DNA of 64,000 bases from an uncultured Candidatus Saccharibacteria bacterium (GCA_964616145.1 CAZTRD010000003.1:5892-69891); one strand, 5' to 3'; shown: positions 2,051 to 22,416, counted from the first letter of the stretch. Made by a program: numbers and translations. Notes: generated by a model not told the origin, from the sequence alone.

Positions 2051-2731
2051 ATGAAGATTGAATCAACAACACTTTGGGATTTCCCTAGACAAAATTATGG
2101 AGATAAACCACATGGAAATAATAAATATAATGGCGTAACACCAGCCTTTGTTATTTGGAATTTATTGCAAAGATACACAAAAGAGAATGATCTGGTCGTT
2201 GATCCGATGTGTGGGAGTGGAACAACGATAGACGTCGCGAAAGAATTAAACCGAAAAGTAATCGGCTATGATTTGAACATTGTCCGTCCCGATGTTATTA
2301 AAAATGATTCTCGGAAAATTCCTCTCGGAGATAACTCTGTGGATTTTGTTTTTATTGATTCGCCATATTCTGATAATATTAAGTACTCAGACGACGAAAG
2401 GTGTATCGGTAAAATTTCCTGCGAGAAAACGGAATTTTACGACGAATTAGAAAAAACTGCTTCAGAAATCGTGAGAATTTTGAAACCAGGTAAGGTCGTA
2501 GGTTGGGTTATCGCCGATCAATGGATTAAAAGAAAATTCACAGCAGTTGGATTTTTATTGTGGCAAAGATTAGAAAAATATTTTGAGCCGATGGACATAA
2601 TTTGTTTAACTCGTCATAATCAAACATCGAACACAGAAGTTTGGCATAATAGAGCAAGACAATTTAATTTTTATTTGAGAGGGTTCAAATATTTATTTAT
2701 AATGAGAAAACCTGAAAAAGAAATAGTATAA
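2051..2731 (+). CDS. Small SAM-dependent methyltransferase, N4/N6 DNA-methylase-like (motif I before motif IV)
   Basis: 'LVVDPMCGSGTTIDVAKELNRKVIGYD' is the FxGxG SAM-binding motif I in the context typical of PF01555-type DNA methylases. 'VFIDSPYSD' is a (D/S)PPY-like motif IV about 50 aa downstream. The gene starts 3 nt after the OLD gene stop. At 226 aa there is no obvious target-recognition domain, so an RNA substrate cannot be excluded. Confidence 0.6.
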   Translation: MKIESTTLWDFPRQNYGDKPHGNNKYNGVTPAFVIWNLLQRYTKENDLVVDPMCGSGTTIDVAKELNRKVIGYDLNIVRPDVIKNDSRKIPLGDNSVDFVFIDSPYSDNIKYSDDERCIGKISCEKTEFYDELEKTASEIVRILKPGKVVGWVIADQWIKRKFTAVGFLLWQRLEKYFEPMDIICLTRHNQTSNTEVWHNRARQFNFYLRGFKYLFIMRKPEKEIV

Positions 2732-4469: not shown

Positions 4470-4582
4470 TAATTATCAAGAGAGACGGTGAGAGATTTGG
4501 CTCTGCGATCCGCCCAGCAACCCTTAAAGTCGACTGCTTTAAGAAGGTGCTAAATCCAAACCCATAAGGGAAAGATAAAAGG
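4470..4582 (+). promoter_or_regulatory. SAM-I (S-box) riboswitch aptamer
   Basis: UUAUCAAGAGAGACGGUGAGAGAUUUGGCUCUGCGAUCCGCCCAGCAACC ... AAGGUGCUAAAUCC ... CCCAUAAGGGAAAGAUAA matches the S-box core (AUCAAGAG, GGC..GAU..CC.GCAACC, GGUGCUAAAUCC). P1 pairs UUAUC 4473-4477 with GAUAA 4574-4578. Confidence 0.8.
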
Positions 4583-4633: not shown

Positions 4634-5059
4634 ATGAACTCAAAAGAATATAAGAATACAGTAAATAAAGATGTTAGATATACCTTTATTCCCAAATGCC
4701 TGAGATTAGAAGGATTATCGGAATATAATAACATGCCATTTAATGTTATGTTCCAAGAATTCATTACTGAAAATGACAATCTTCTTTCGGCAACTGCGAT
4801 ATACGAACCAAGCTTCTCAACATTCAAAACAGAGGGAAATATCTGTTCAATGATGTACAGAAACGCATATGGCAATGATTCATGGCTGAAAATCTCCTAC
4901 GATAACAATGAAAATATTTGGCATGGATCAAAAATAGTTGACGGCAAATGCATAGGAAAAGCATTTGGCGCTAATTGGAAAATGTTTTTTATCCATTTTA
5001 CAACTTTAGGATTATCTAATGGAGAAAAATGCAAACTAGAAAAATTGTTAATAAATTAA
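4634..5059 (+). CDS. Uncharacterised 141-aa soluble protein directly controlled by the SAM-I riboswitch
   Basis: Its ATG lies immediately after the riboswitch SD hairpin. The ORF is uninterrupted, with no family motif recognised and no TM segment. Confidence 0.6.
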   Translation: MNSKEYKNTVNKDVRYTFIPKCLRLEGLSEYNNMPFNVMFQEFITENDNLLSATAIYEPSFSTFKTEGNICSMMYRNAYGNDSWLKISYDNNENIWHGSKIVDGKCIGKAFGANWKMFFIHFTTLGLSNGEKCKLEKLLIN

Positions 5060-5363: not shown

Positions 5364-6620
5364 ATGAATAAAAAAATCTTACTGATTAGTTTAATCATTC
5401 TTCTGCTTGCCGGCTTTGCCACAGCTTCATTATTAATGTTTCCTTATCATCCAGACGAACCACCGCTAGCAGATGATACCGGATCAACGCAGAATGGTAT
5501 TGAAGCAGTAGTAAATGCCAATAATCAATTTGCTTTTGATGTATATTCTGAATTAAGCAAATCAGAAACAGGCAATATCTTTTATTCCCCTTATAGCCTA
5601 TCCGCTGCCCTGGCTATGACATATGAGGGAGCTAATGGAGAAACTGCCGCGGAGATAAAATCAGTTTTGCATTATCCTGAAATTGATATCTTAAGGCCTA
5701 ACTTTGCAGCAATTTATAATGATATTAATAAGGAATCAAAGGATAATATATTAAAGACAGGCAATGCATTATGGGTCCAGCAGGATTATCAATTGCTTCC
5801 TGACTTTCTAACCCGGGTAGAAAGTTATTACGGAGGAAAAGCAACCAATCTTGATTTTGTTGAATCCTTAGAACCGTCTAGAAAAACTATTAATGCCTTT
5901 ATTGCCGGACAAACCAATAACAAGATTAAAGAACTAATTCCTCAGGGAATCCTTGATGCCATGACTCGGTTGGTTTTAACCAACGCTGTCTATTTTAAGG
6001 GAACTTGGGAATGGCAATTTGAACAATCCAAAACTTTTACTGACGATTTTAAGGTAAATGACAATACCGTAGTTCAGGCCGAAATGATGCGTATGAAGCC
6101 TGACAAAACGACGTTTAATTATGCTAATACTGATAGCTGGCAGATTCTGGAATTGCCATATAAAGGAGATGAAATTTCAATGCTGATTCTTTTGCCGACC
6201 AGTAATCTTGATAGCGTTGAAACAAAGCTAACAGCAGAAAATCTTAATCAATTAAAATCTGAATTAAAAGAAACTAAATTAGATTCAATCATTCTGCCAA
6301 AATTTGAATTCAATTCCAAGTATTTTATGCAAGAAGCATTAAGCGCTATGGGCATGCCTACTGCTTTTTCTCCATCGGCGGATTTTTCAGGGATGACAGG
6401 CAATAAAGATTTGCTTATCGATTCTGTTATTCACGAAGCCTATATCAAAGTAAATGAAGAGGGAACCGAGGCGGCAGCTGCTACTGCTGTTACAATGAAA
6501 TTAACAGCCATTAGTCCGCAAAATGTTTTTAATGCCGATCATCCATTTATCTTTTTAATCCAGGATAAAGATAATGGCAATATCCTGTTTCTAGGCAGGG
6601 TAGTTGATCCCACTCAATAA
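5364..6620 (+). CDS. Serpin (serine protease inhibitor) with N-terminal signal/anchor helix
   Basis: 'NQFAFDVYSEL ... NIFYSPYSLSAALAMTYEGANGETAAEI' is the serpin N-terminal signature. The inhibitory-type hinge/RCL is 'NEEGTEAAAATAVTMKLTAISP' and the C-terminal signature is 'FNADHPFIFLIQD'. The N-terminal KKILLISLIILLLAGFATASLL is hydrophobic. Confidence 0.9.
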   Translation: MNKKILLISLIILLLAGFATASLLMFPYHPDEPPLADDTGSTQNGIEAVVNANNQFAFDVYSELSKSETGNIFYSPYSLSAALAMTYEGANGETAAEIKSVLHYPEIDILRPNFAAIYNDINKESKDNILKTGNALWVQQDYQLLPDFLTRVESYYGGKATNLDFVESLEPSRKTINAFIAGQTNNKIKELIPQGILDAMTRLVLTNAVYFKGTWEWQFEQSKTFTDDFKVNDNTVVQAEMMRMKPDKTTFNYANTDSWQILELPYKGDEISMLILLPTSNLDSVETKLTAENLNQLKSELKETKLDSIILPKFEFNSKYFMQEALSAMGMPTAFSPSADFSGMTGNKDLLIDSVIHEAYIKVNEEGTEAAAATAVTMKLTAISPQNVFNADHPFIFLIQDKDNGNILFLGRVVDPTQ

Positions 6621-6637
6621 TTTAACATAAAGATAAC

Positions 6638-7768
6638 ATGAATAACATCTCAGATAAAATTATAGAAATGAGCTTTCCCAAATTAATAGTAGTGGCTATA
6701 ATTATTACTGTAATAATAGTGATAATTGCAAAGCTGGCCCAAAAAGCCAAGAGGGCCAAGGCAATAGCCAGCCTGAATGCTTCCTATGCAAAAACTCCGT
6801 ATCTGGCAGAAACTGATTTAGTTAAAGAATTGGGTTATCAGACTAATGCCGGCGATGAATCGCTTTTCCCTTCCGCAAGCCAACCGGCCGAAGAAATTAG
6901 TCTCAAAACTTATCAAGATCCAGAAGAAAAATTAGCTGATTACCGTACATTTGATTTTGATTATACTAATAAAGACAACCCGCTTCTTGAAAAAGAGCTT
7001 TTTTTGCAGTTAGAAAAAATACTCGCGCGTTATGGCCTAACCCGTGTTAAAAAGAATCCGCAGGCAGTCATTAGTATGAATTTTTTCATTGGTAAAAAAG
7101 AGCAATATACTCCTCCAACCACAGTAATAAGCACAGAAACTCAGTATGTTTGGAATACTGGCTTTATTGGCTGGAATATGGGAGGATTTACTTCTGCCAT
7201 ACCGATTACTAAATCAACCACCACTCCAGGATATACCACCATTAGCTATTACACCAATATCCGCATTAATATTTTAAATCATGCTAAATTATCATCAGGC
7301 AAGAAACCAGAAACTCCGCCATTAGTCTGGCTAGGCGAAGCTGACAGCGAAGGACCAAATTCTGATATTCGCTTCATTGCGCTTATAATGTTTGAAGCTC
7401 TGGCCAGCCATTTATCTAATCAGCCATTGGCAGTTTCAAAATTTTTAGTGTGCCGTTTCCGTTATGGAGGATTAGGATTGGGATTTGACCCAAACGATTG
7501 GCGCATAATCCGCTATATCGAACCATCTTCAATTGCAGACGATAATAATCTCAAACCCGGGGATATCCTGATTAAAATTAATGATAATAGTCCCAGCCGA
7601 GCTTTTACGGCTTCTAAAGATCAAAACCCGTATTTCCTGCATGTTCTATCTAATCCCGGCAAATCAGATGTAAAATTATTAATCAAGTCAGGGGCTACCG
7701 GTAAAAAAATATCACTTTCTTTAAAGCCTCGTTTAGAAAATCGCTATGTGAGAGTTGACGATAAATAA
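6638..7768 (+). CDS. Membrane-anchored protein with C-terminal PDZ-like domain
   Basis: N-terminal TM helix (FPKLIVVAIIITVIIVIIAKL). The C-terminal 'GLGLGFDPNDWRIIRYIEPSSIADDNNLKPGDILIKINDN' looks like a PDZ carboxylate-binding loop and core. The middle region is unassigned. Confidence 0.5.
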   Translation: MNNISDKIIEMSFPKLIVVAIIITVIIVIIAKLAQKAKRAKAIASLNASYAKTPYLAETDLVKELGYQTNAGDESLFPSASQPAEEISLKTYQDPEEKLADYRTFDFDYTNKDNPLLEKELFLQLEKILARYGLTRVKKNPQAVISMNFFIGKKEQYTPPTTVISTETQYVWNTGFIGWNMGGFTSAIPITKSTTTPGYTTISYYTNIRINILNHAKLSSGKKPETPPLVWLGEADSEGPNSDIRFIALIMFEALASHLSNQPLAVSKFLVCRFRYGGLGLGFDPNDWRIIRYIEPSSIADDNNLKPGDILIKINDNSPSRAFTASKDQNPYFLHVLSNPGKSDVKLLIKSGATGKKISLSLKPRLENRYVRVDDK

Positions 7769-7880: not shown

Positions 7881-8000
7881 ATGGAACCCCTAGCTTCAAA
7901 GATAAGGCCAAAAACATTAAAGGACTTTGTAGGCCAGGAGCATTTGGTTGGGGAAGGGAAACCATTAAATATTGCAATAAAACCGCTAAAGAATGTTTAG
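7881..8000 (+). pseudogene. rarA: Displaced 5' fragment of rarA (first 34 codons, then 5 unrelated codons and TAG)
   Basis: 7881-7983 aligns to 10595-10697 (103 nt, 5 mismatches). It translates to MEPLASKIRPKTLKDFVGQEHLVGEGKPLNIAIK, identical to the RarA N-terminus, then diverges (PLKNV*). Confidence 0.85.
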
Positions 8001-8041
8001 TAGAGAAATGTATTTAATAATAATCTTTAACGTTTTAGACT

Positions 8042-8064
8042 AATCGCTTAAAAGCGATTTTTCT
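8042..8064 (+). terminator. Intrinsic terminator after the rarA fragment
   Basis: AATCGCTT-AA-AAGCGATT perfect 8-bp stem followed by TTTTCT. Confidence 0.55.
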
Positions 8065-8069
8065 ATTCA

Positions 8070-8097
8070 TTGACTTATATATAAAAAATGGTAGTCT
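8070..8097 (+). promoter_or_regulatory. Sigma70-type promoter of high-GC cassette A
   Basis: TTGACT (8070-8075), a 16-nt spacer, then TAGTCT (8092-8097) preceded by TGg (extended -10). Confidence 0.5.
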
Positions 8098-8128
8098 TGG
8101 ATTAGATTCCAACGAGTAAGGAGGACTT

Positions 8129-8644
8129 GTGATGGGAGAGAAGAAGGAGCACTTCGACGCTGTAACCTTGGCTTTCGTAGCCATCGCCATCGCCTGTGCC
8201 ATCTTCGGCAGTCTGGCCGCAGGGCTTATCCCTGCCAGAGAAGCGGGATTCGCCCTACTATCGTGGGCTGCTACTGGTCACGTGATCACGCTGATCTGCG
8301 TCATCATCCAACACGAGACCAACGCAGCTGTCGTACTCTTCGTCTTCATGGGCTTCTGGATCTGCGCTGGACTGGGTCTCAGCTTCTTGTCATCGCATGG
8401 ACTGCACAGGCTTCTGATGGTGATCGAGCCCACGCTGCTGGCTATCACCTTCCTGTGGCAGTTCTTGTACCGGAACAAGCGACAGCTGAGGTGCGTTCTC
8501 CTAGGCTTGGCCTGGGTAATCCTATGGCTCTTTGTCTCCAAGTTCATTCCCCAGTTAGGCGTGATGACGCCATACTGGGTGTGGGCTCTGGGCCTCTATC
8601 TGCTTCTATTGGCATTCTGGCGAAGACTGCACCCGGCAGGATAG
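8129..8644 (+). CDS. High-GC cassette A: 171-aa polytopic (about 6 TM) membrane protein, no recognised family
   Basis: GC jumps to ~55 % (hand count). AAGGAGGA lies 7 nt before ATG 8132 (GTG 8129 in the track). Codon third positions are G/C-rich. Six hydrophobic stretches are present (e.g. VTLAFVAIAIACAIFGSLAAGLI, AAVVLFVFMGFWICAGLGLSFL). Confidence 0.7.
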   Translation: MMGEKKEHFDAVTLAFVAIAIACAIFGSLAAGLIPAREAGFALLSWAATGHVITLICVIIQHETNAAVVLFVFMGFWICAGLGLSFLSSHGLHRLLMVIEPTLLAITFLWQFLYRNKRQLRCVLLGLAWVILWLFVSKFIPQLGVMTPYWVWALGLYLLLLAFWRRLHPAG

Positions 8645-8666
8645 AGGCACGATGATGCTCAACAAT

Positions 8667-8706
8667 GCACGGCACTAACCTTCGGGTTGGTGCCGTGTTC
8701 TGATTT
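8667..8706 (+). terminator. Intrinsic terminator of cassette A
   Basis: GCACGGCACUAACC-UUCG-GGUUGGUGCCGUG forms a ~14-bp GC-rich stem with a UUCG loop, followed by a U-rich tract (uucugauuu). Confidence 0.75.
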
Positions 8707-8757
8707 AATATATAATAATTTTGAACTATCTGATTTAATGTTACAATACAATGAATC

Positions 8758-9534
8758 ATGAACCTAATTCAAACCCAAGCTAAAGAAATCTTCACCAAAA
8801 CCAAACTACTTGGTTGCGATTGGGTGATTAATCAATATGTAGGCTGCGATCATGCCTGCCTCTATTGTTATGCCAAATTCATTTCTCGCTGGAAACCTCT
8901 AGATTATGGAAAATGGGGGACATGGGTAGAAGCAAAGATAAACGGAGGGGAATTAGTAAAGAATAGATATGTGAAAGGATTGGCATATATGAGTTCAATT
9001 TCTGATCCATACCAATCTATTGAAAAGGAATTGAAATTAACCAGAAAGATTCTGGAAAATCTTGATAAAAGAATCCATCTTATCATTCAAACCAAATCAG
9101 ATTTGGTTTTAAGAGATATTGATCTATTTAAACAATTTCAAAACATTGAAATTGGTTTTACGATAAACAGCTTTAATGGAATTTCAAAAGAAATTTTTGA
9201 ACCTTTTTCCGTTTCCAATGAAAAAAGAATAGAAGCTTTAAGGATTTTGAAGGAAAACGGATTAAAAACCTTTGTTTTTGTCAGCCCTATTATTCCTGGA
9301 TTGATAGACTTAAAGAAAGTAATTGATAATACCAAACAATTTACTGATTATTATTGGTTTGAATTCATTAACGTAAAAGCTGCGGGAAAGGAATTTATAG
9401 AAGCATTAAAAAAACATTTTCCTGAAAGCTATAATGTTTTAAATGATAAAAATGAATTCTTAAAATTCATTGCAGAATCAAAACAAATTATTTCTTCTCA
9501 AAACATTAATGTTAGGGGAATAGAAATACATTGA
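8758..9534 (+). CDS. Radical SAM protein (COG1533/SplB-like 'DNA repair photolyase' family)
   Basis: CxxxCxxC cluster motif 'GCDHACLYCYAKF' near the N-terminus, in the context INQYVGC...CYA typical of COG1533. About 258 aa TIM-barrel size. Confidence 0.6.
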   Translation: MNLIQTQAKEIFTKTKLLGCDWVINQYVGCDHACLYCYAKFISRWKPLDYGKWGTWVEAKINGGELVKNRYVKGLAYMSSISDPYQSIEKELKLTRKILENLDKRIHLIIQTKSDLVLRDIDLFKQFQNIEIGFTINSFNGISKEIFEPFSVSNEKRIEALRILKENGLKTFVFVSPIIPGLIDLKKVIDNTKQFTDYYWFEFINVKAAGKEFIEALKKHFPESYNVLNDKNEFLKFIAESKQIISSQNINVRGIEIH

Positions 9535-10594: not shown

Positions 10595-10697
10595 ATGGAA
10601 CCATTAGCTTCAAAGATAAGGCCAAAAACATTAAAGGACTTTGTAGGCCAGGAGCATTTGGTTGGAGAAGGAAAACCTTTAAATATTGCAATAAAAC
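10595..10697 (+). repeat. Right copy of the 103-bp rarA-5' direct repeat (left copy 7881-7983)
   Basis: 98 of 103 positions are identical by manual alignment. All five differences fall on third codon positions or a Leu first position and are synonymous (ccc/cca P, cta/tta L, ggg/gga G twice, cca/cct P). Confidence 0.9.
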
Positions 10698-11725
10698 AGA
10701 AACATCTGTTTTCCTTTATCTTCTGGGGCCCTCCCGGATCCGGAAAGACAACTTTGGCTAAGATATATGCTCATAGTTTAAATGCAGACCTATATGAATT
10801 ATCTGCAGTTTCTGCTGGAAAAGCAGATATCAGAAAGATCGTAATGGAAAATACATTACAGCCTAAGGTTTTGTTTTTAGATGAAATACATAGGTTTAAT
10901 AAAGCTCAACAGGATTTCTTACTCCCATATGTAGAAAGAGGGGAATTGGCTCTAATAGGAGCTACTACAGAAAACCCAAGCTTTGAAGTAATTGCTCCAT
11001 TACTATCCCGTTGCAGGGTTTTTGTCTTAAACGAATTGTCGCCGGAAGAAATGGTAACAATTATCAAGCGTACAGGTTTTAAGATGGATAAAAAAGCAGC
11101 GGATTGGTTAGTTGCAATGGCTAATGGCGATGCCAGGCAAGCCATTACAATGCTTGAGAATTGTTCTGAGTTATATAAATCAATAACTGTAGATAATTTA
11201 AAGAATGCTCTTCAATCCAAATTCTTACGATATGATAAAAAAGGAGAGGAACACTATAACACCATCTCTGCTTTCATTAAAAGCATGAGAGCAAGCCAAC
11301 CAGATGCAGCCCTCTACTATTTAGCCAGAATGATTGATTCTGGTGAAGATCCTAAATTCATTGCCAGAAGAATGGTAATCTTTGCCTCTGAAGACATAGG
11401 ATTAGCTCAACCAACTGCGTTGGTTGTAGCTAATGATGTATTCAGAGCAGTAGAGAATATTGGTTTGCCAGAATGCGGAATCAATCTGGCTCATGGAGTA
11501 GCATATCTTTGCAAATGCAAGAAGAATAGAGATGCATATAACGGATACATGGCTGCGATGAAAGATGTCCAAGATTATGGAAATCTTCCTATTCCTTTAA
11601 TGTTAAGGAATCCTGAAACAAAACTAATGAAGGATTTAGATTATGGCAAAGGATATGAAAAATATTCTAAAGAAGACTATTTGCCAGAGAAATTAAAGGG
11701 AAGAAAATATTTAAGAGAGTCTTGA
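10595..11725 (+). CDS. rarA: Replication-associated recombination protein A (AAA+ ATPase RarA/MgsA)
   Basis: 'LRPKTLKDFVGQEHL', Walker A 'GPPGSGKTTLA', Walker B 'VLFLDEIHRFNKAQQD', 'GATTENPSFEV', and a C-terminal MgsA domain with 'HYNTISAFIKSMRASQPDAALYYLARMIDSGEDPKFIARRM'. Confidence 0.9.
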   Translation: MEPLASKIRPKTLKDFVGQEHLVGEGKPLNIAIKQKHLFSFIFWGPPGSGKTTLAKIYAHSLNADLYELSAVSAGKADIRKIVMENTLQPKVLFLDEIHRFNKAQQDFLLPYVERGELALIGATTENPSFEVIAPLLSRCRVFVLNELSPEEMVTIIKRTGFKMDKKAADWLVAMANGDARQAITMLENCSELYKSITVDNLKNALQSKFLRYDKKGEEHYNTISAFIKSMRASQPDAALYYLARMIDSGEDPKFIARRMVIFASEDIGLAQPTALVVANDVFRAVENIGLPECGINLAHGVAYLCKCKKNRDAYNGYMAAMKDVQDYGNLPIPLMLRNPETKLMKDLDYGKGYEKYSKEDYLPEKLKGRKYLRES

Positions 11726-12989: not shown

Positions 12990-13030
12990 AAAAACAGAAC
13001 GGGAGGGGATCGTAGTCCTCTCCCGTTTAC
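12990..13030. terminator. GC-rich hairpin between convergent genes (bidirectional terminator)
   Basis: AACGGGAGGGGA-ucguag-UCCUCUCCCGUU forms a ~12-bp stem with one G-U pair. A T-run follows on the minus strand (ctgtttttaaa) and a weaker one on the plus strand (tttacgttt). Confidence 0.65.
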
Positions 13031-13998
13031 GTTTCCTCGCTGTACGACACTTCCCAGTCCGATGTTCCAGACGGGAAGACCTCTGCGACGATGTAGTCCT
13101 TCTGGGCATCCAGACCGGTAGTGATGAGGAGCTCAATCCCGCCAAGTCTGCCAGAAGGGTCTCCCAGCGTTTCTGCCTGAGCGGCGACCTGGCACTCGAC
13201 AGGATCTGTCGCAATTTCAAGACCAAGAAGTTGTCTGAGATCGTAATAGAACCAATCCCTGACTGATCCATCGATCTTCTTGAGAGCTATTGCCAGCAGG
13301 TACAAAGGCCACTTTTCAGCAACCTCTTGCACCGCTTGCACTCCTTTCAGATCGGGGAATTTCTTTTTGCTCTCGAAATTGAATGTCCCTATGTAGCTAT
13401 AGAGCGCCACCCAGACGAATCTGGAAAAACCCTGAAGCTGATATTGCAGTTTCTTGTTCCCGTTAATCTCAGCCCAGAAGATATCGCGCACCAATAGAGC
13501 ATCTTCCCTTGAGAAGGTGAATCTCACGCCCCTAGGGACAGGAATTTCCACCTGTCTAGATCTAAGGGTTTTGATTCTTCTCCCGGGCAGATAGACTCTA
13601 TTGATTCGAATATTGTGGGTTGGAGATTTCCACGTCATTACCGTTACCCTGGTTATCCTTTGGATCAGCGTGAAAAGTTGCGGAGCAACTAGGAGGTATT
13701 GCTCTTCTGACAGAACTGCTTGTTTCTCGCGTCGAGGTATATATGATTCTCTCGGCAGTTTATCTCTGCCGTCGGACTTGTGATACGGCCTCGTGCGCCA
13801 GAGACCAATTTCCATCAGAACAGCTTGCTCGCTAGTACCGTCATGAACACCGACTACCGCTATCACATCCAATCTGGCTCGAGGATTCTCCGTGACCCTA
13901 AAAGAGGCATTGCCAGGATCTATGATGATCAGATACCTGGCATTTCTTTCAATGGTCTCCACGTCCCGTCTTGCTCTCTCTGGATCGAACCCTGACAT
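13027..13998 (-). CDS. High-GC cassette B: 324-aa soluble protein, no recognised family
   Basis: About 57 % GC (hand count). AGGAGGGAGG lies 7 nt upstream of the ATG at 13998 (MSGFDPERARR...). The longer track ORF (to 14091) adds 31 codons made of the AT-rich promoter region. An open frame of over 320 codons in GC-rich DNA is very unlikely by chance. Confidence 0.7.
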   Translation of the reverse strand: MSGFDPERARRDVETIERNARYLIIIDPGNASFRVTENPRARLDVIAVVGVHDGTSEQAVLMEIGLWRTRPYHKSDGRDKLPRESYIPRREKQAVLSEEQYLLVAPQLFTLIQRITRVTVMTWKSPTHNIRINRVYLPGRRIKTLRSRQVEIPVPRGVRFTFSREDALLVRDIFWAEINGNKKLQYQLQGFSRFVWVALYSYIGTFNFESKKKFPDLKGVQAVQEVAEKWPLYLLAIALKKIDGSVRDWFYYDLRQLLGLEIATDPVECQVAAQAETLGDPSGRLGGIELLITTGLDAQKDYIVAEVFPSGTSDWEVSYSEET

Positions 13999-14062
13999 TG
14001 ACTTTCCTCCCTCCTTTCGCATTTCAGCGAGTTTTTTGTACAAGGTGCAGAAATGATATTTC

Positions 14063-16666: not shown

Positions 16667-16945
16667 TTGAGCAAACAGAAGCGCACCGGCAGGAAAGATG
16701 CCCCTACTGTCCTGGAGATTCTGCTAAGGCATTCAAGCATTACTGATGCCTCAGCAAAGACGCTCTTCGACGGATCGGGCATAGGAGACGATCGCAGTGA
16801 CTTTGCTGCTATCGCCGGGGAGATCAACTACTACTTCGCGCCCAGGCCATCGATTGATCCAAGCTGGATGAAAACATTGGCGACGACCCCGGGGATCAGG
16901 TTCAATGTCTTGATCGATAGGGTCGAACATGACCGAACAAGGTAG
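16667..16945 (+). CDS. High-GC cassette C: 92-aa protein, no recognised family
   Basis: AAGGAG lies 5 nt before the TTG start at 16667. About 55 % GC (hand count). The ORF spans the whole GC-rich block and is followed by a strong terminator. No TM segment. Confidence 0.55.
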   Translation: MSKQKRTGRKDAPTVLEILLRHSSITDASAKTLFDGSGIGDDRSDFAAIAGEINYYFAPRPSIDPSWMKTLATTPGIRFNVLIDRVEHDRTR

Positions 16946-20425: not shown

Positions 20426-20914
20426 ATGTGGGCAGTTTTACTCGGTGGCGCGCTAGGAGTTGGCGCATGGAGATTCAACGGTGTGCCGTTCGAACAGGCT
20501 TGGATGACGCTGGTAATTTACAGCGTCGTTGTCATCCTGCTGGTTTTCTTTTTCGTTAACATGGCCGAGAAGCTGTGGGAACGAATCAGAGAGACTGATC
20601 TGGGGCAGTCAATCGAACGGACAAGGATGGCATCCCAGATACAATCTGTCATAGGGCTGTTGAGAAACCACAACAACGGCACTAGCCAGATGAAGCACAA
20701 CGTCAAGAAAAAGTTGCTCAAGACAGCTCCCTGGCTAGTAGTACTCTTGTACTACTTGCCGATCCCAGTAGTCGGAGATGCTGTAGTTATTCTAGCCAAA
20801 GCATTAGTAGACACGAAAGTGTTGAAAATGCGATGGGTACTCCCGGTACTCTTCGGGGGAGTTATCTTCAAGAGTTGGATCACCTGCGTGATCTGGTACC
20901 AAAAACCTCTATGA
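20426..20914 (+). CDS. High-GC cassette D: 162-aa 4-TM membrane protein, no recognised family
   Basis: About 52 % GC (hand count) with a G/C3-rich frame. Hydrophobic helices include AWMTLVIYSVVVILLVFFFV, PWLVVLLYYLPIPVVGDAVVILA and WVLPVLFGGVIFKSWITCVIW. The start is uncertain. The AGGAGG at 20381-20386 is 40 nt from ATG 20426. The frame is open back to 20390, and an in-frame ATT at 20396 would have ideal SD spacing. Confidence 0.6.
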   Translation: MWAVLLGGALGVGAWRFNGVPFEQAWMTLVIYSVVVILLVFFFVNMAEKLWERIRETDLGQSIERTRMASQIQSVIGLLRNHNNGTSQMKHNVKKKLLKTAPWLVVLLYYLPIPVVGDAVVILAKALVDTKVLKMRWVLPVLFGGVIFKSWITCVIWYQKPL

Positions 20915-21033: not shown

Positions 21034-21258
21034 ATGAACGAGGTTCAGTTAGAAGATGTTAGATGCGACATTCGTGTCATCACGGATGTAGGCATCTGCG
21101 TCTTCGAAAGAACCTCCTCTGGGTCGTTGGGTCGCCTAAAGATGAAAGACGATCCGTCAACCGATGAGGGGGAAGTAAGGAAACTGGGCCTCCTAGCGCT
21201 TGCCGAACAGAGGGAATGTACTTTTGTCGGCTACGCGCTCAAGGAGGGCGATCGCTAG
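21034..21258 (+). CDS. High-GC cassette E: 74-aa acidic soluble protein, no recognised family
   Basis: AAGGAAGG lies 5 nt before the ATG. About 55 % GC (hand count). A strong terminator follows immediately. Confidence 0.55.
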   Translation: MNEVQLEDVRCDIRVITDVGICVFERTSSGSLGRLKMKDDPSTDEGEVRKLGLLALAEQRECTFVGYALKEGDR

Positions 21259-21350: not shown

Positions 21351-21644
21351 ATGGATTATCTATACACTATCATCGGAGGGTTAGGCGGTGGAACGGTAAG
21401 GGGATTAATCGGATATGTAAAACATCAATTTGCATACAAGCAAGTTGATTTTAAGTTACCATACTTTTTTGTAATGATTTTTCTTTCCGGAGTAATCGGA
21501 ACGCTATGCGCTGCCGCCATAGACAAATCAGACATTGCCGGTATAATTAGTAGCCCGGCCATATCATTCATTGTCGGATATGCCGGAGGCGATTTTTTAG
21601 ATAACATATACAAGATATTAATCAGAAAAAAAGATGCAGTATAA
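21351..21644 (+). CDS. Small membrane protein (97 aa, 3 helices)
   Basis: Gly-rich N-terminal helix (LYTIIGGLGGGTVRGLIGYV), then YFFVMIFLSGVIGTLCAAAI and ISSPAISFIVGYAGG. Overlaps the next gene by 11 nt. No family recognised. Confidence 0.5.
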   Translation: MDYLYTIIGGLGGGTVRGLIGYVKHQFAYKQVDFKLPYFFVMIFLSGVIGTLCAAAIDKSDIAGIISSPAISFIVGYAGGDFLDNIYKILIRKKDAV

Positions 21645-22416
21645 TAATATTGATTGGTTTAAAAGCAAGCATGGACATGAAGTTGGAGGTTTCTGGGTTC
21701 CGAGAGTTACGGCAATTACAGAAATAATCAACAAACCGGCATTGCTTAAATACTATGCCCAGCAGGAGAGCTTTGAAGCAGCCCAGGTGTTGCTTAAAAA
21801 TTCCGCTAATTGGGGAACAAAAACTCATGCAGCAATAGAGCAATTGTTAAAAGGAGAAGAAATTGAACCTAATACACAAATAGCTCCGTCTATACAGGCA
21901 TTCAATGATTGGTTTTCCCAATACAATGTATCGATAACATCTCCGGAAGAAGATATTGAAAGAATGATTTTTGATCCCGATAACTATTACGCCGGAAGAA
22001 TGGACGCGTTAATAGAGATTAACGGAGAATTAGGAATTTTGGATATCAAAACCGGAACAGGAATCTGGGAAGAATACTATCTGCAGACAGCTGCCTACTT
22101 AAATGCATATAATAAGACGGCTCCGTCTCAAAGAATTGCAGACAAAAGATGGATACTGAGGGTGGAACAATATCAGGAGTGCGTTTTTTGCGGAGCTAAA
22201 AAAAGGGGGAAGAGCGGAACCGATGTGATTAAGGGAGGAAATACGTATTGCACTCATCAATTCGGTCCAGAAAAAGGTATTTTTGAATTCAAGGATTTGC
22301 CGGATAATGAGCATGATATCGAAGCATTCCTTAATGCTCAGAAATTATGGGAATGGTATAATCAAGACAATCTTAAAAAGATCAAAAATTATCCAAAGAA
22401 ATTAAAAAATGACTGA
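21634..22416 (+). CDS. PD-(D/E)XK (RecB/Cas4-like) nuclease with inserted Cys-rich segment
   Basis: 'YYAGRMDALIEINGELGILDIKTGTGIWEEYYLQTAAYLNAY' gives D ... (D)IK ... QxxxY, the RecB-family nuclease core. An inserted 'CVFCGAKKRGKSGTDVIKGGNTYCTHQF' is zinc-ribbon-like. Confidence 0.65.
   Translation: MQYNNIDWFKSKHGHEVGGFWVPRVTAITEIINKPALLKYYAQQESFEAAQVLLKNSANWGTKTHAAIEQLLKGEEIEPNTQIAPSIQAFNDWFSQYNVSITSPEEDIERMIFDPDNYYAGRMDALIEINGELGILDIKTGTGIWEEYYLQTAAYLNAYNKTAPSQRIADKRWILRVEQYQECVFCGAKKRGKSGTDVIKGGNTYCTHQFGPEKGIFEFKDLPDNEHDIEAFLNAQKLWEWYNQDNLKKIKNYPKKLKND

Follow-up and report, generated by a model that had tools for sequence, protein, structure and literature searches.

The stretch of DNA analyzed here (64,000 nt from an uncultured Candidatus Saccharibacteria bacterium, GCA_964616145.1 CAZTRD010000003.1:5892-69891; hereafter the window) is AT-rich, with 35% GC overall and a GC content at third codon positions (GC3) of about 0.20-0.37 in almost every open reading frame (ORF). 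Across positions 8050-8700 the GC content climbs to 50-57%. This GC-rich stretch closely matches an ORF and its terminator, and the promoter and leader in front of the ORF are AT-rich. Together these elements, here called cassette A, read as a complete transcription unit with a promoter-like site, a ribosome-binding site, an ORF and a terminator (Table 1). The cassette lies directly after a displaced 5' fragment of rarA and 5' of a gene for a radical S-adenosylmethionine (SAM) enzyme, and it encodes a small membrane protein. The only close homologue of this protein (P0002) was found in two Logan assemblies, L001 and L002, and is 81-84% identical.

Alignment with L001 delimits the cassette, since similarity starts at a hairpin upstream of the promoter-like site and fades about 30 nt past the terminator. 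Judged from its sequence, the upstream hairpin would insulate the cassette from upstream transcription; in L001 its copy lies 35 nt after the stop codon of a radical-SAM gene. The promoter, the leader palindrome and the ribosome-binding site are nearly identical between the window and L001. The promoter-like site is kept in L001 as TTGACT...TAGATT, and its equivalent in another homologue (L011) is TTGACG...TAGTGT. The imperfect palindrome in the leader, which occurs once in the window, is 100% conserved in L001, compared with 14% divergence across the ORF, and could serve as an operator or 5' stem-loop. Seven contigs in the JGI metagenomes contain exact matches to the 19-nt leader palindrome, all of them in unrelated coding sequence. 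Of the two possible start codons, the GTG lines up with the ATG of the L001 homologue, and gene callers take the ATG. The stem of the terminator is preserved in the L001 copy via paired changes. At the right boundary of the cassette an 11-nt direct repeat, TCTGATTTAAT, is present in the terminator tail (8699-8709) and again at 8729-8739, at the point up to which L001 is similar and shortly before the extended -10 element of the radical-SAM gene (TGTTACAAT). Hairpin, promoter, leader and terminator are thus kept with the ORF in a flanking context that is different in L001, which supports the autonomy of the unit. Furthermore, family members in seven other contexts also occur as stand-alone genes, and wherever flanks were available the gene brings along a promoter-like site, a ribosome-binding site and a terminator of its own.

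The ORF is a genuine gene and evolves under purifying selection. Its GC content is 0.56 (0.56/0.42/0.71 at the first, second and third codon positions), and its differences from the L001 homologue are distributed 24/14/41 over the codon positions, with a nonsynonymous divergence (dN) of 0.09, a synonymous divergence (dS) of 0.49 and a dN/dS of 0.18. An exhaustive HMMER search of 1.84 billion cluster representatives returned a family of 19 proteins at E <= 1e-3. The members are mostly 169-235 amino acids (aa) long, three of them 307-315 aa, and the family is conserved across phyla. In the family alignment H50, F72, F75, W76 and L133 are invariant, and F8, I18, A66, E99, Y113, L123, L126 and K137 nearly so. 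The cassette protein has no match in Pfam (E <= 0.1), NCBIfam, PHROG or PADLOC models and none among the viral structures of BFVD. No relative was found in a single-protein scan of a 185,579-species genome collection, a scan that reaches close relatives only, and scans of metagenome and viral contigs with a three-sequence alignment yielded no further copies.

A structural model was built with AlphaFold2 from a 21-sequence family alignment. The model is confident, with a predicted local distance difference test score (pLDDT) of 94.9 and a predicted template modelling score (pTM) of 0.87, and consists of six helices at residues 10-29, 35-59, 63-85, 88-113, 117-136 and 140-166. When it was compared with the PDB by Foldseek, the eight best matches were all chains of SatP or UreI, each with a probability of 1.00. 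The SatP matches (5ys3, 5ys8, 5zug) have template modelling scores (TM-scores) of 0.74-0.80 over the full length, and the UreI matches reach 0.69 (6nsj) and 0.70 (3ux4). Designed helical barrels follow, one of them at a TM-score of 0.62, and other natural proteins stay at or below about 0.4. SatP and UreI share a six-helix, three-hairpin fold with a pore through each protomer of a hexamer (PMC4602095). For the cassette protein, a member of this family, the predicted fold is thus SatP/UreI-like. Positive charges are clustered at the N-terminus, in the loop between helices 4 and 5 (RNKRQLR) and at the C-terminus, which by the positive-inside rule would place both termini in the cytoplasm, where AceTr proteins have theirs.

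An earlier note, made from the sequence alone, had described a compact six-helix membrane protein of 171 aa at 8070-8706. Those coordinates coincide exactly with the -35 element at one end and the terminator tail at the other, the model indeed has six helices, and the dN/dS marks the gene as real. The note recognised no family for the protein, in agreement with all four model collections searched. Its suggestion of a transporter or immunity-like protein fares differently in its two halves: the matches to SatP and UreI favour a transporter, but an immunity-like role finds no support, and the neighbouring radical-SAM enzyme is of the SplB/PA0069/Rv2578c type, not a peptide maturase.

The composition of the cassette is foreign to its surroundings. 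The GC3 of the ORF is 0.71, compared with 0.25-0.32 in the neighbouring genes and at most 0.44 in window ORFs outside five GC-rich cassettes, of which cassette A is one. The encoded protein has a GARP/FYMINK amino-acid ratio of 1.18 against a window median of 0.57, and it groups with family members of GC-type composition. Distant members have a native composition, both in low-GC genomes (L006, L007, L009 and L010) and in a 56%-GC genome (L015). At four-fold degenerate sites the window has A or T where L001 has G or C 14 times, and the reverse is seen 4 times; this asymmetry suggests that the window copy is drifting toward AT, the composition of its host. Codon and amino-acid composition point to acquisition of the cassette from a GC-richer donor.

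Hundreds of islands and transferred genes have been described in a survey of 125 Patescibacteria genomes (PMC12455944). Cassette A resembles the horizontally acquired single-gene islets of Patescibacteria in being compositionally deviant and not syntenic, and its region contains toxin-antitoxin, ParA-like and phage-related genes as theirs do. Unlike these islets, it is a single gene of about 0.7 kb in which the deviant stretch is cut precisely to the ORF and terminator and the promoter is AT-rich, and four similar units lie within 13 kb.

We favour, with moderate confidence, the reading that cassette A is an autonomously transcribed, horizontally acquired unit in a Patescibacteria genome and that its product, an inner-membrane protein of 170 aa and six helices, represents a rare family that lacks annotation and has the SatP/UreI channel fold. 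Both structural relatives suggest by analogy that the protein is most likely a small-solute pore. The six-helix bundle of every protomer would enclose a narrow channel of its own, and the protomers would probably be arranged in a hexameric ring. What passes down its gradient through this channel, either passively or in a proton-modulated manner, would be a small solute that is polar or a weak acid; acetate, formate, lactate, urea, amides and ammonia are candidates. I18 in helix 1, F72 in helix 3 and L126 in helix 5 would make up the central hydrophobic constriction, comparable to F17/Y72/L131 of SatP; we infer I18 as the third of these residues from the pseudo-three-fold symmetry. On this reading, the conserved residues probably line or gate the pore, with H50, E99, Y113 and K137 as candidate selectivity or gating residues.

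In SatP the central hydrophobic constriction is formed by F17/Y72/L131 (PMC8379382), and L131 influences selectivity (PMC4602095). An alignment of the family with SatP by hhalign, which is not significant and misaligns helix 1, places T63, F72, F75 and W76 opposite T63, Y72, F75 and W76 of SatP and L126 opposite L131. The likeness to the AceTr/SatP family (GPR1/FUN34/YaaH, PF01184, TC 2.A.96), which forms hexameric acetate-succinate channels, thus includes a stretch 'T...F/Y-x-G-F-W' in helix 3 and a conserved leucine in helix 5, both in this non-significant register. Cassette protein and AceTr/SatP proteins are also alike in their size of about 170-190 aa and their six transmembrane helices, and like SatP the cassette protein is encoded by a stand-alone gene. 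Unlike AceTr/SatP, the family has no PF01184 match, shares 12% identity and has invariant polar residues of its own (H50, E99, Y113, K137). With UreI/AmiS (PF02293, TC 1.A.29), a family of proton-gated urea channels and putative amide channels, the protein shares the six-helix hairpin-repeat fold and a similar size, and the pore may be expected to pass through each protomer of a hexamer as it does in UreI (PMC4602095). Unlike UreI/AmiS, it shows no sequence match and lacks the long periplasmic loop of UreI. The termini of UreI are periplasmic, in contrast to the cytoplasmic termini suggested for the cassette protein. Urease or amidase genes were found neither near the window copy nor in the nine other contexts read.

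Several results weigh against the favoured reading. The SatP/UreI-like fold is predicted, not solved, and the E-values of the Foldseek matches are only 0.014-0.13. The Pfam models PF01184 and PF02293 match none of the 21 family members at E <= 1; homologues of E. coli SatP all have PF01184. In addition, the family profile finds no meaningful relative among PDB sequences, and UreI chains are not among its matches at E <= 10. With hhalign the family reaches an E-value of 0.13 against SatP alone and of 0.029 against 13 SatP homologues, neither significant, at a probability below 2% and with helix 1 misaligned; the 13-homologue profile is shallow because all returned SatP homologues are at least 74% identical. 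Helix 1 does not begin with the AceTr signature NPAPLGL(M/S), a motif that uptake requires (PMC7218280): the cassette protein reads ...KEHFDAVTLAFVAIA... at that place, and the family consensus there is F-x-x-V-x-F-V-L-x-x-I, without N-P-x-P. No neighbourhood points to a substrate, neither that of the window copy nor those in nine further genomic contexts, which have no common neighbour. Since there is no family match, the signature is absent and the profile similarity is not significant, the protein is placed neither in AceTr nor in AmiS/UreI on sequence grounds, and we regard it as belonging to a new family with the predicted SatP/UreI channel fold.

With respect to origin, the homologue in L011, which is 48% identical, is also GC-rich (50%) in another low-GC genome (35.5%), and so is the L001 copy, with 57% GC in a context of 32%. 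A neutral decay model was applied in which the cassette has resided together with the radical-SAM gene since the split of window and L001 and decays at the rate of that gene. This model needs an ancestral GC3 of 0.97 when all synonymous sites are used and of 0.82 for four-fold sites. It also predicts an AT/GC discordance of 0.36 at all synonymous sites, where 0.20 is seen. At four-fold sites alone 0.30 is predicted and 0.24 seen, and the model is not rejected. Because of the GC-rich copies in L001 and L011 and the misfit of the neutral model, selection on synonymous sites or repeated transfer may play a part.

The high GC content could accordingly be kept by selection, on codon use for expression or on mRNA stability, in a gene lineage resident in low-GC genomes of the candidate phyla radiation (CPR). 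This alternative, which shares the proposed function and differs in origin alone, we consider unlikely but worth weighing. The three copies in low-GC genomes remain GC-rich (56% in the window, 57% in L001, 50% in L011) despite a protein divergence of 16-52%, and the misfit of the neutral model at all synonymous sites favours selection, as does the coincidence of the GC-rich stretch with ORF and terminator behind an AT-rich promoter and leader. However, the amino-acid composition is shifted as well (the ratio of 1.18 against 0.57), not synonymous sites alone, and the preferred codons CTG, GCC, GGC and GTC are typical of GC-rich genomes, not merely C-ending members of pyrimidine pairs. The four-fold sites, where neutrality is not rejected and the 14:4 asymmetry runs toward AT in the window copy, also argue for acquisition, and four unrelated orphan genes nearby with the same anomaly fit a foreign gene pool better.

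Table 1. Features of cassette A, the surrounding island and the further GC-rich ORFs (positions in the window)
Feature	Position	Strand	Basis or remark
Displaced rarA 5' fragment, left copy of 103-nt duplication	7881-7983	+	95% identical to 10595-10697
Conserved block, about 690 bp (hairpin, promoter, leader, ORF, terminator, about 30 nt beyond)	8038-8731	+	Alignment with L001
Upstream hairpin AATCGCTTAAAAGCGATT, then TTTTT	8042-8059	+	Terminator scan; identical in L001
Promoter-like site: -35 TTGACT (8070-8075), 16-nt spacer ending TGG, -10 TAGTCT (8092-8097)	8070-8097	+	Sequence reading
Imperfect palindrome TTGGA-TTAGAT-TCCAA, 16 nt, over the -10 element and expected transcription start (candidate operator or stem-loop)	8097-8112		Sequence reading
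Ribosome-binding site AAGGAGG	8118-8124	+	Sequence reading; conserved in L001 and L011
ORF of six-helix membrane protein, start GTG 8129 or ATG 8132, 171/170 aa	8129-8644	+	ORF call, family alignment, model
Intrinsic terminator: 14-bp stem, TTCG loop, T-rich tail (stem-loop 8667-8698)	8667-8706	+	Terminator scan
Radical-SAM gene, 258 aa, SplB/PA0069/Rv2578c-like, 30% GC	8758-9534	+	Pfam PF04055
ParA-like ATPase gene, 39% GC, right end of island, stops 3 nt before the rarA start codon	9575-10591	+	phrog_164, E 3.8e-42
Intact rarA (mgsA)	10595-11725	+	Pfam MgsA_C, AAA_assoc_2, AAA
Further GC-rich orphan ORF	13027-14022	-	The four further ORFs: GC 0.48-0.53, GC3 0.52-0.62
Further GC-rich orphan ORF	16667-16945	+	As above
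Further GC-rich orphan ORF	20426-20914	+	As above
Further GC-rich orphan ORF	21034-21258	+	As above

The cassette is part of an island of about 2.6 kb that also contains the radical-SAM gene and the ParA-like gene and is bracketed by two copies of the rarA 5' end. These copies are 2714 nt apart, and all five mismatches between them are synonymous, which suggests that recombination with a functional but diverged allele of rarA brought in the island, not duplication in place followed by decay. An 8-nt sequence, ATTAGTAA, is repeated just upstream of both rarA start codons. The bracketing duplication had been described in the earlier note and is borne out, as is the mosaic nature of the island, with 56% GC in the cassette, 30% in the radical-SAM gene and 39% in the ParA-like gene. 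The position of the cassette after the rarA fragment is likewise correct; the terminator found there had been assigned to this fragment. Since this hairpin (8042-8059) is conserved with the cassette in L001, it travels with the cassette and is not the terminator of the rarA fragment. The window rarA is 69-86% identical to rarA of Patescibacteria metagenome-assembled genomes, with 81-86% to Candidatus Nealsonbacteria, Paceibacterota and related genomes. In 80 relatives whose rarA loci were compared, these loci lack all three genes (cassette, radical-SAM and ParA), which makes the island an insertion and the cassette non-syntenic. Absent from these loci and with 19 representatives among 1.84 billion, the protein does not belong to a common, syntenic housekeeping family, the finding that the note had named as the one to contradict it.

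Both island neighbours of the cassette match phage families strongly. The radical-SAM protein has an E-value of 1.5e-44 with phrog_13321; its NCBIfam matches (TIGR04470, NF033668 and NF038135) are all below the cut-offs, the best one, also below cut-off, being 'radical SAM mobile pair protein B'. Directly upstream of the disrupted rarA site, at 5364-7768, a full-length serpin gene (Pfam E 1.6e-119) is followed by a gene whose product is a DUF4136 protein with a PDZ match that is weak and below cut-off.

In L001 (2268-3790) the cassette block lies 3' of the orthologous radical-SAM gene, whose product is 89.5% identical, and before a gene of the AP-endonuclease-2 family. The order is thus reversed compared with the window, where the block lies 5' of the radical-SAM gene. 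In L001 and L002 the radical-SAM gene overlaps a DedA/VTT-domain gene by 4 nt, and neither ParA nor rarA is nearby. The reversed order could be due to movement of the block, to an intermediate in which the two-gene pair was circular or in tandem, or to an ordinary rearrangement. A remnant of the radical-SAM 3' end to the left of the cassette, as a tandem or circular intermediate would leave, was rejected, since the local alignment score was no better than that of shuffled sequences.

The membrane protein might work together with the radical-SAM enzyme encoded next to it, by transporting the substrate or product of this enzyme or by conferring immunity, so that both genes form a module. In both genomes with the cassette, its neighbour is the orthologous 258-aa radical-SAM gene, though in reversed order, the synonymous divergences of cassette (0.49) and radical-SAM gene (0.77) are of the same order, and a radical-SAM gene is also adjacent in the distant members L006 and L010. 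Nevertheless, we judge a module of this kind improbable. The cassette is bounded by terminators on both sides and has a promoter of its own, and the radical-SAM genes of L006 and L010 are 371-373 aa long, convergent and not similar to the window gene in tblastn. Moreover, no radical-SAM neighbour is present in L007, L009, L011 and L015, and the window enzyme resembles DNA-repair-type proteins (SplB/PA0069/Rv2578c) and a phage family, not peptide maturases. Common descent could explain the linkage, because only two closely related genomes support it.

In L006 (5344-7643) and L010 (5423-7646) the family gene is convergent with the radical-SAM gene of 371-373 aa and divergent from a cluster encoding an Rrf2 regulator, a cupin, a ferredoxin and a hybrid-cluster protein. 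This neighbourhood may hint at a nitrosative or redox-stress context.

Apart from cassette A, the window contains four further GC-rich orphan ORFs (Table 1), each with an AT-rich TTGAC-type promoter, a strong ribosome-binding site and a GC-rich terminator; none has a match in Pfam, NCBIfam, PHROG or PADLOC. Cassette A and three of these ORFs rank highest in the window by GARP/FYMINK ratio, and the ORF at 20426-20914 reaches only 0.76. All five had been described as sharing one design, which is right for the generic features (promoter, ribosome-binding site, terminator, high GC content) but not for their ends: no common boundary repeat and no attC-like or imperfect inverted-repeat element was found among the five cassettes.

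It is conceivable, though quite improbable, that insulated, ready-to-express single-gene cassettes circulate as a pool among CPR genomes, with GC-rich coding kept by selection and cassette A caught on two different sides of one radical-SAM gene; the layout of such a cassette comprises an upstream terminator, an AT-rich promoter, a strong ribosome-binding site, a GC-rich ORF and a strong terminator. We give slightly less credit still to the idea that the cassettes are units of a dedicated mobility system, integron-like or other, by which cassette A moved across the radical-SAM gene. Such a system would account for five GC-rich self-contained units within 13 kb, for the same block of about 690 bp, upstream hairpin included, on either side of the radical-SAM gene in L001 and the window, and for the 11-nt direct repeat at the right boundary of cassette A. 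Against it stand the lack of a common boundary repeat or attC-like element and of any integrase or transposase among the island genes in Pfam and NCBIfam scans, and the promoter of each cassette: integron cassettes are promoterless ORFs with attC beside an integrase, whereas cassette A is furnished with a promoter-like site and an intrinsic terminator. The postulated 3' remnant of the radical-SAM gene did not pass the shuffle test, scans of viral and JGI metagenome collections gave no further copies of the cassette, and the reversed order can be explained otherwise, by a tandem or circular intermediate or by ordinary rearrangement. There is no evidence for a dedicated cassette system.

A spurious ORF, in a GC-rich stretch that would really be a structured non-coding RNA or an assembly chimera, has next to no probability: several frames are open in the stretch, because GC-rich sequence is poor in stop codons, and RNA genes are often GC-rich islands of AT-rich genomes, but Rfam has no match in the cassette region, ARAGORN finds no tRNA or tmRNA there, third-position differences dominate at a dN/dS of 0.18, the protein family crosses phyla and has a confident six-helix model, and the cassette junctions are identical in at least three independent ENA assemblies, so that the cassette is not an assembly chimera, with the homologue present in two Logan runs. 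With these strong coding signals, the structured RNA reading was rejected.

If the favoured reading, an acquired channel protein on an autonomous unit, is correct, a third, sequence-unrelated family is added to the SatP/UreI channel fold. We infer the channel and its oligomeric state, orientation, pore residues and substrate, like the GC-richer donor, and a family so small, compact and rare is a tractable object for structural work and flux measurements; the invariant polar residues peculiar to it may indicate a different substrate or gating mode. Because CPR bacteria rely on trading small metabolites with their hosts or neighbours, the acquisition of a channel for small solutes would plausibly be adaptive. 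The GC-rich cluster of self-contained orphans is a clean case for foreign-gene expression and slow compositional drift in reduced, AT-rich genomes. A cassette pool, if true, would be a previously undescribed way of carrying and relocating accessory genes in ultra-small bacteria. As a modest new family and not a new kind of system, the protein leaves current concepts unchanged, and its significance is modest.

A few observations concern other loci. GC-rich orphan genes as a general neighbour of rarA in Patescibacteria were considered and rejected, since only 2 of about 40 low-GC loci have one. In a Yanofskybacteria locus of 41% GC (L076, 8168-8662, minus strand) an orphan ORF of 165 aa has 64% GC, a GC3 of 0.79 and an N-terminal membrane anchor, and a second, weaker GC-rich orphan case lies in L081, deposited as uncultured Candidatus Saccharibacteria (2178-2420, minus strand). 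Beside the last two GC-rich cassettes of the window (D and E), at 21351-22416, a small ORF that weakly resembles the LydA holin, below threshold (Pfam E 0.012), is followed by a gene for a PD-(D/E)XK/Cas4-like exonuclease (phrog_298, E 7.8e-25); the two may be a prophage remnant. Finally, a SAM-I riboswitch (Rfam RF00162, 55 bits, E 5.9e-10) was detected at 4470-4581 on the plus strand, just upstream of an uncharacterised 141-aa ORF (4634-5059).

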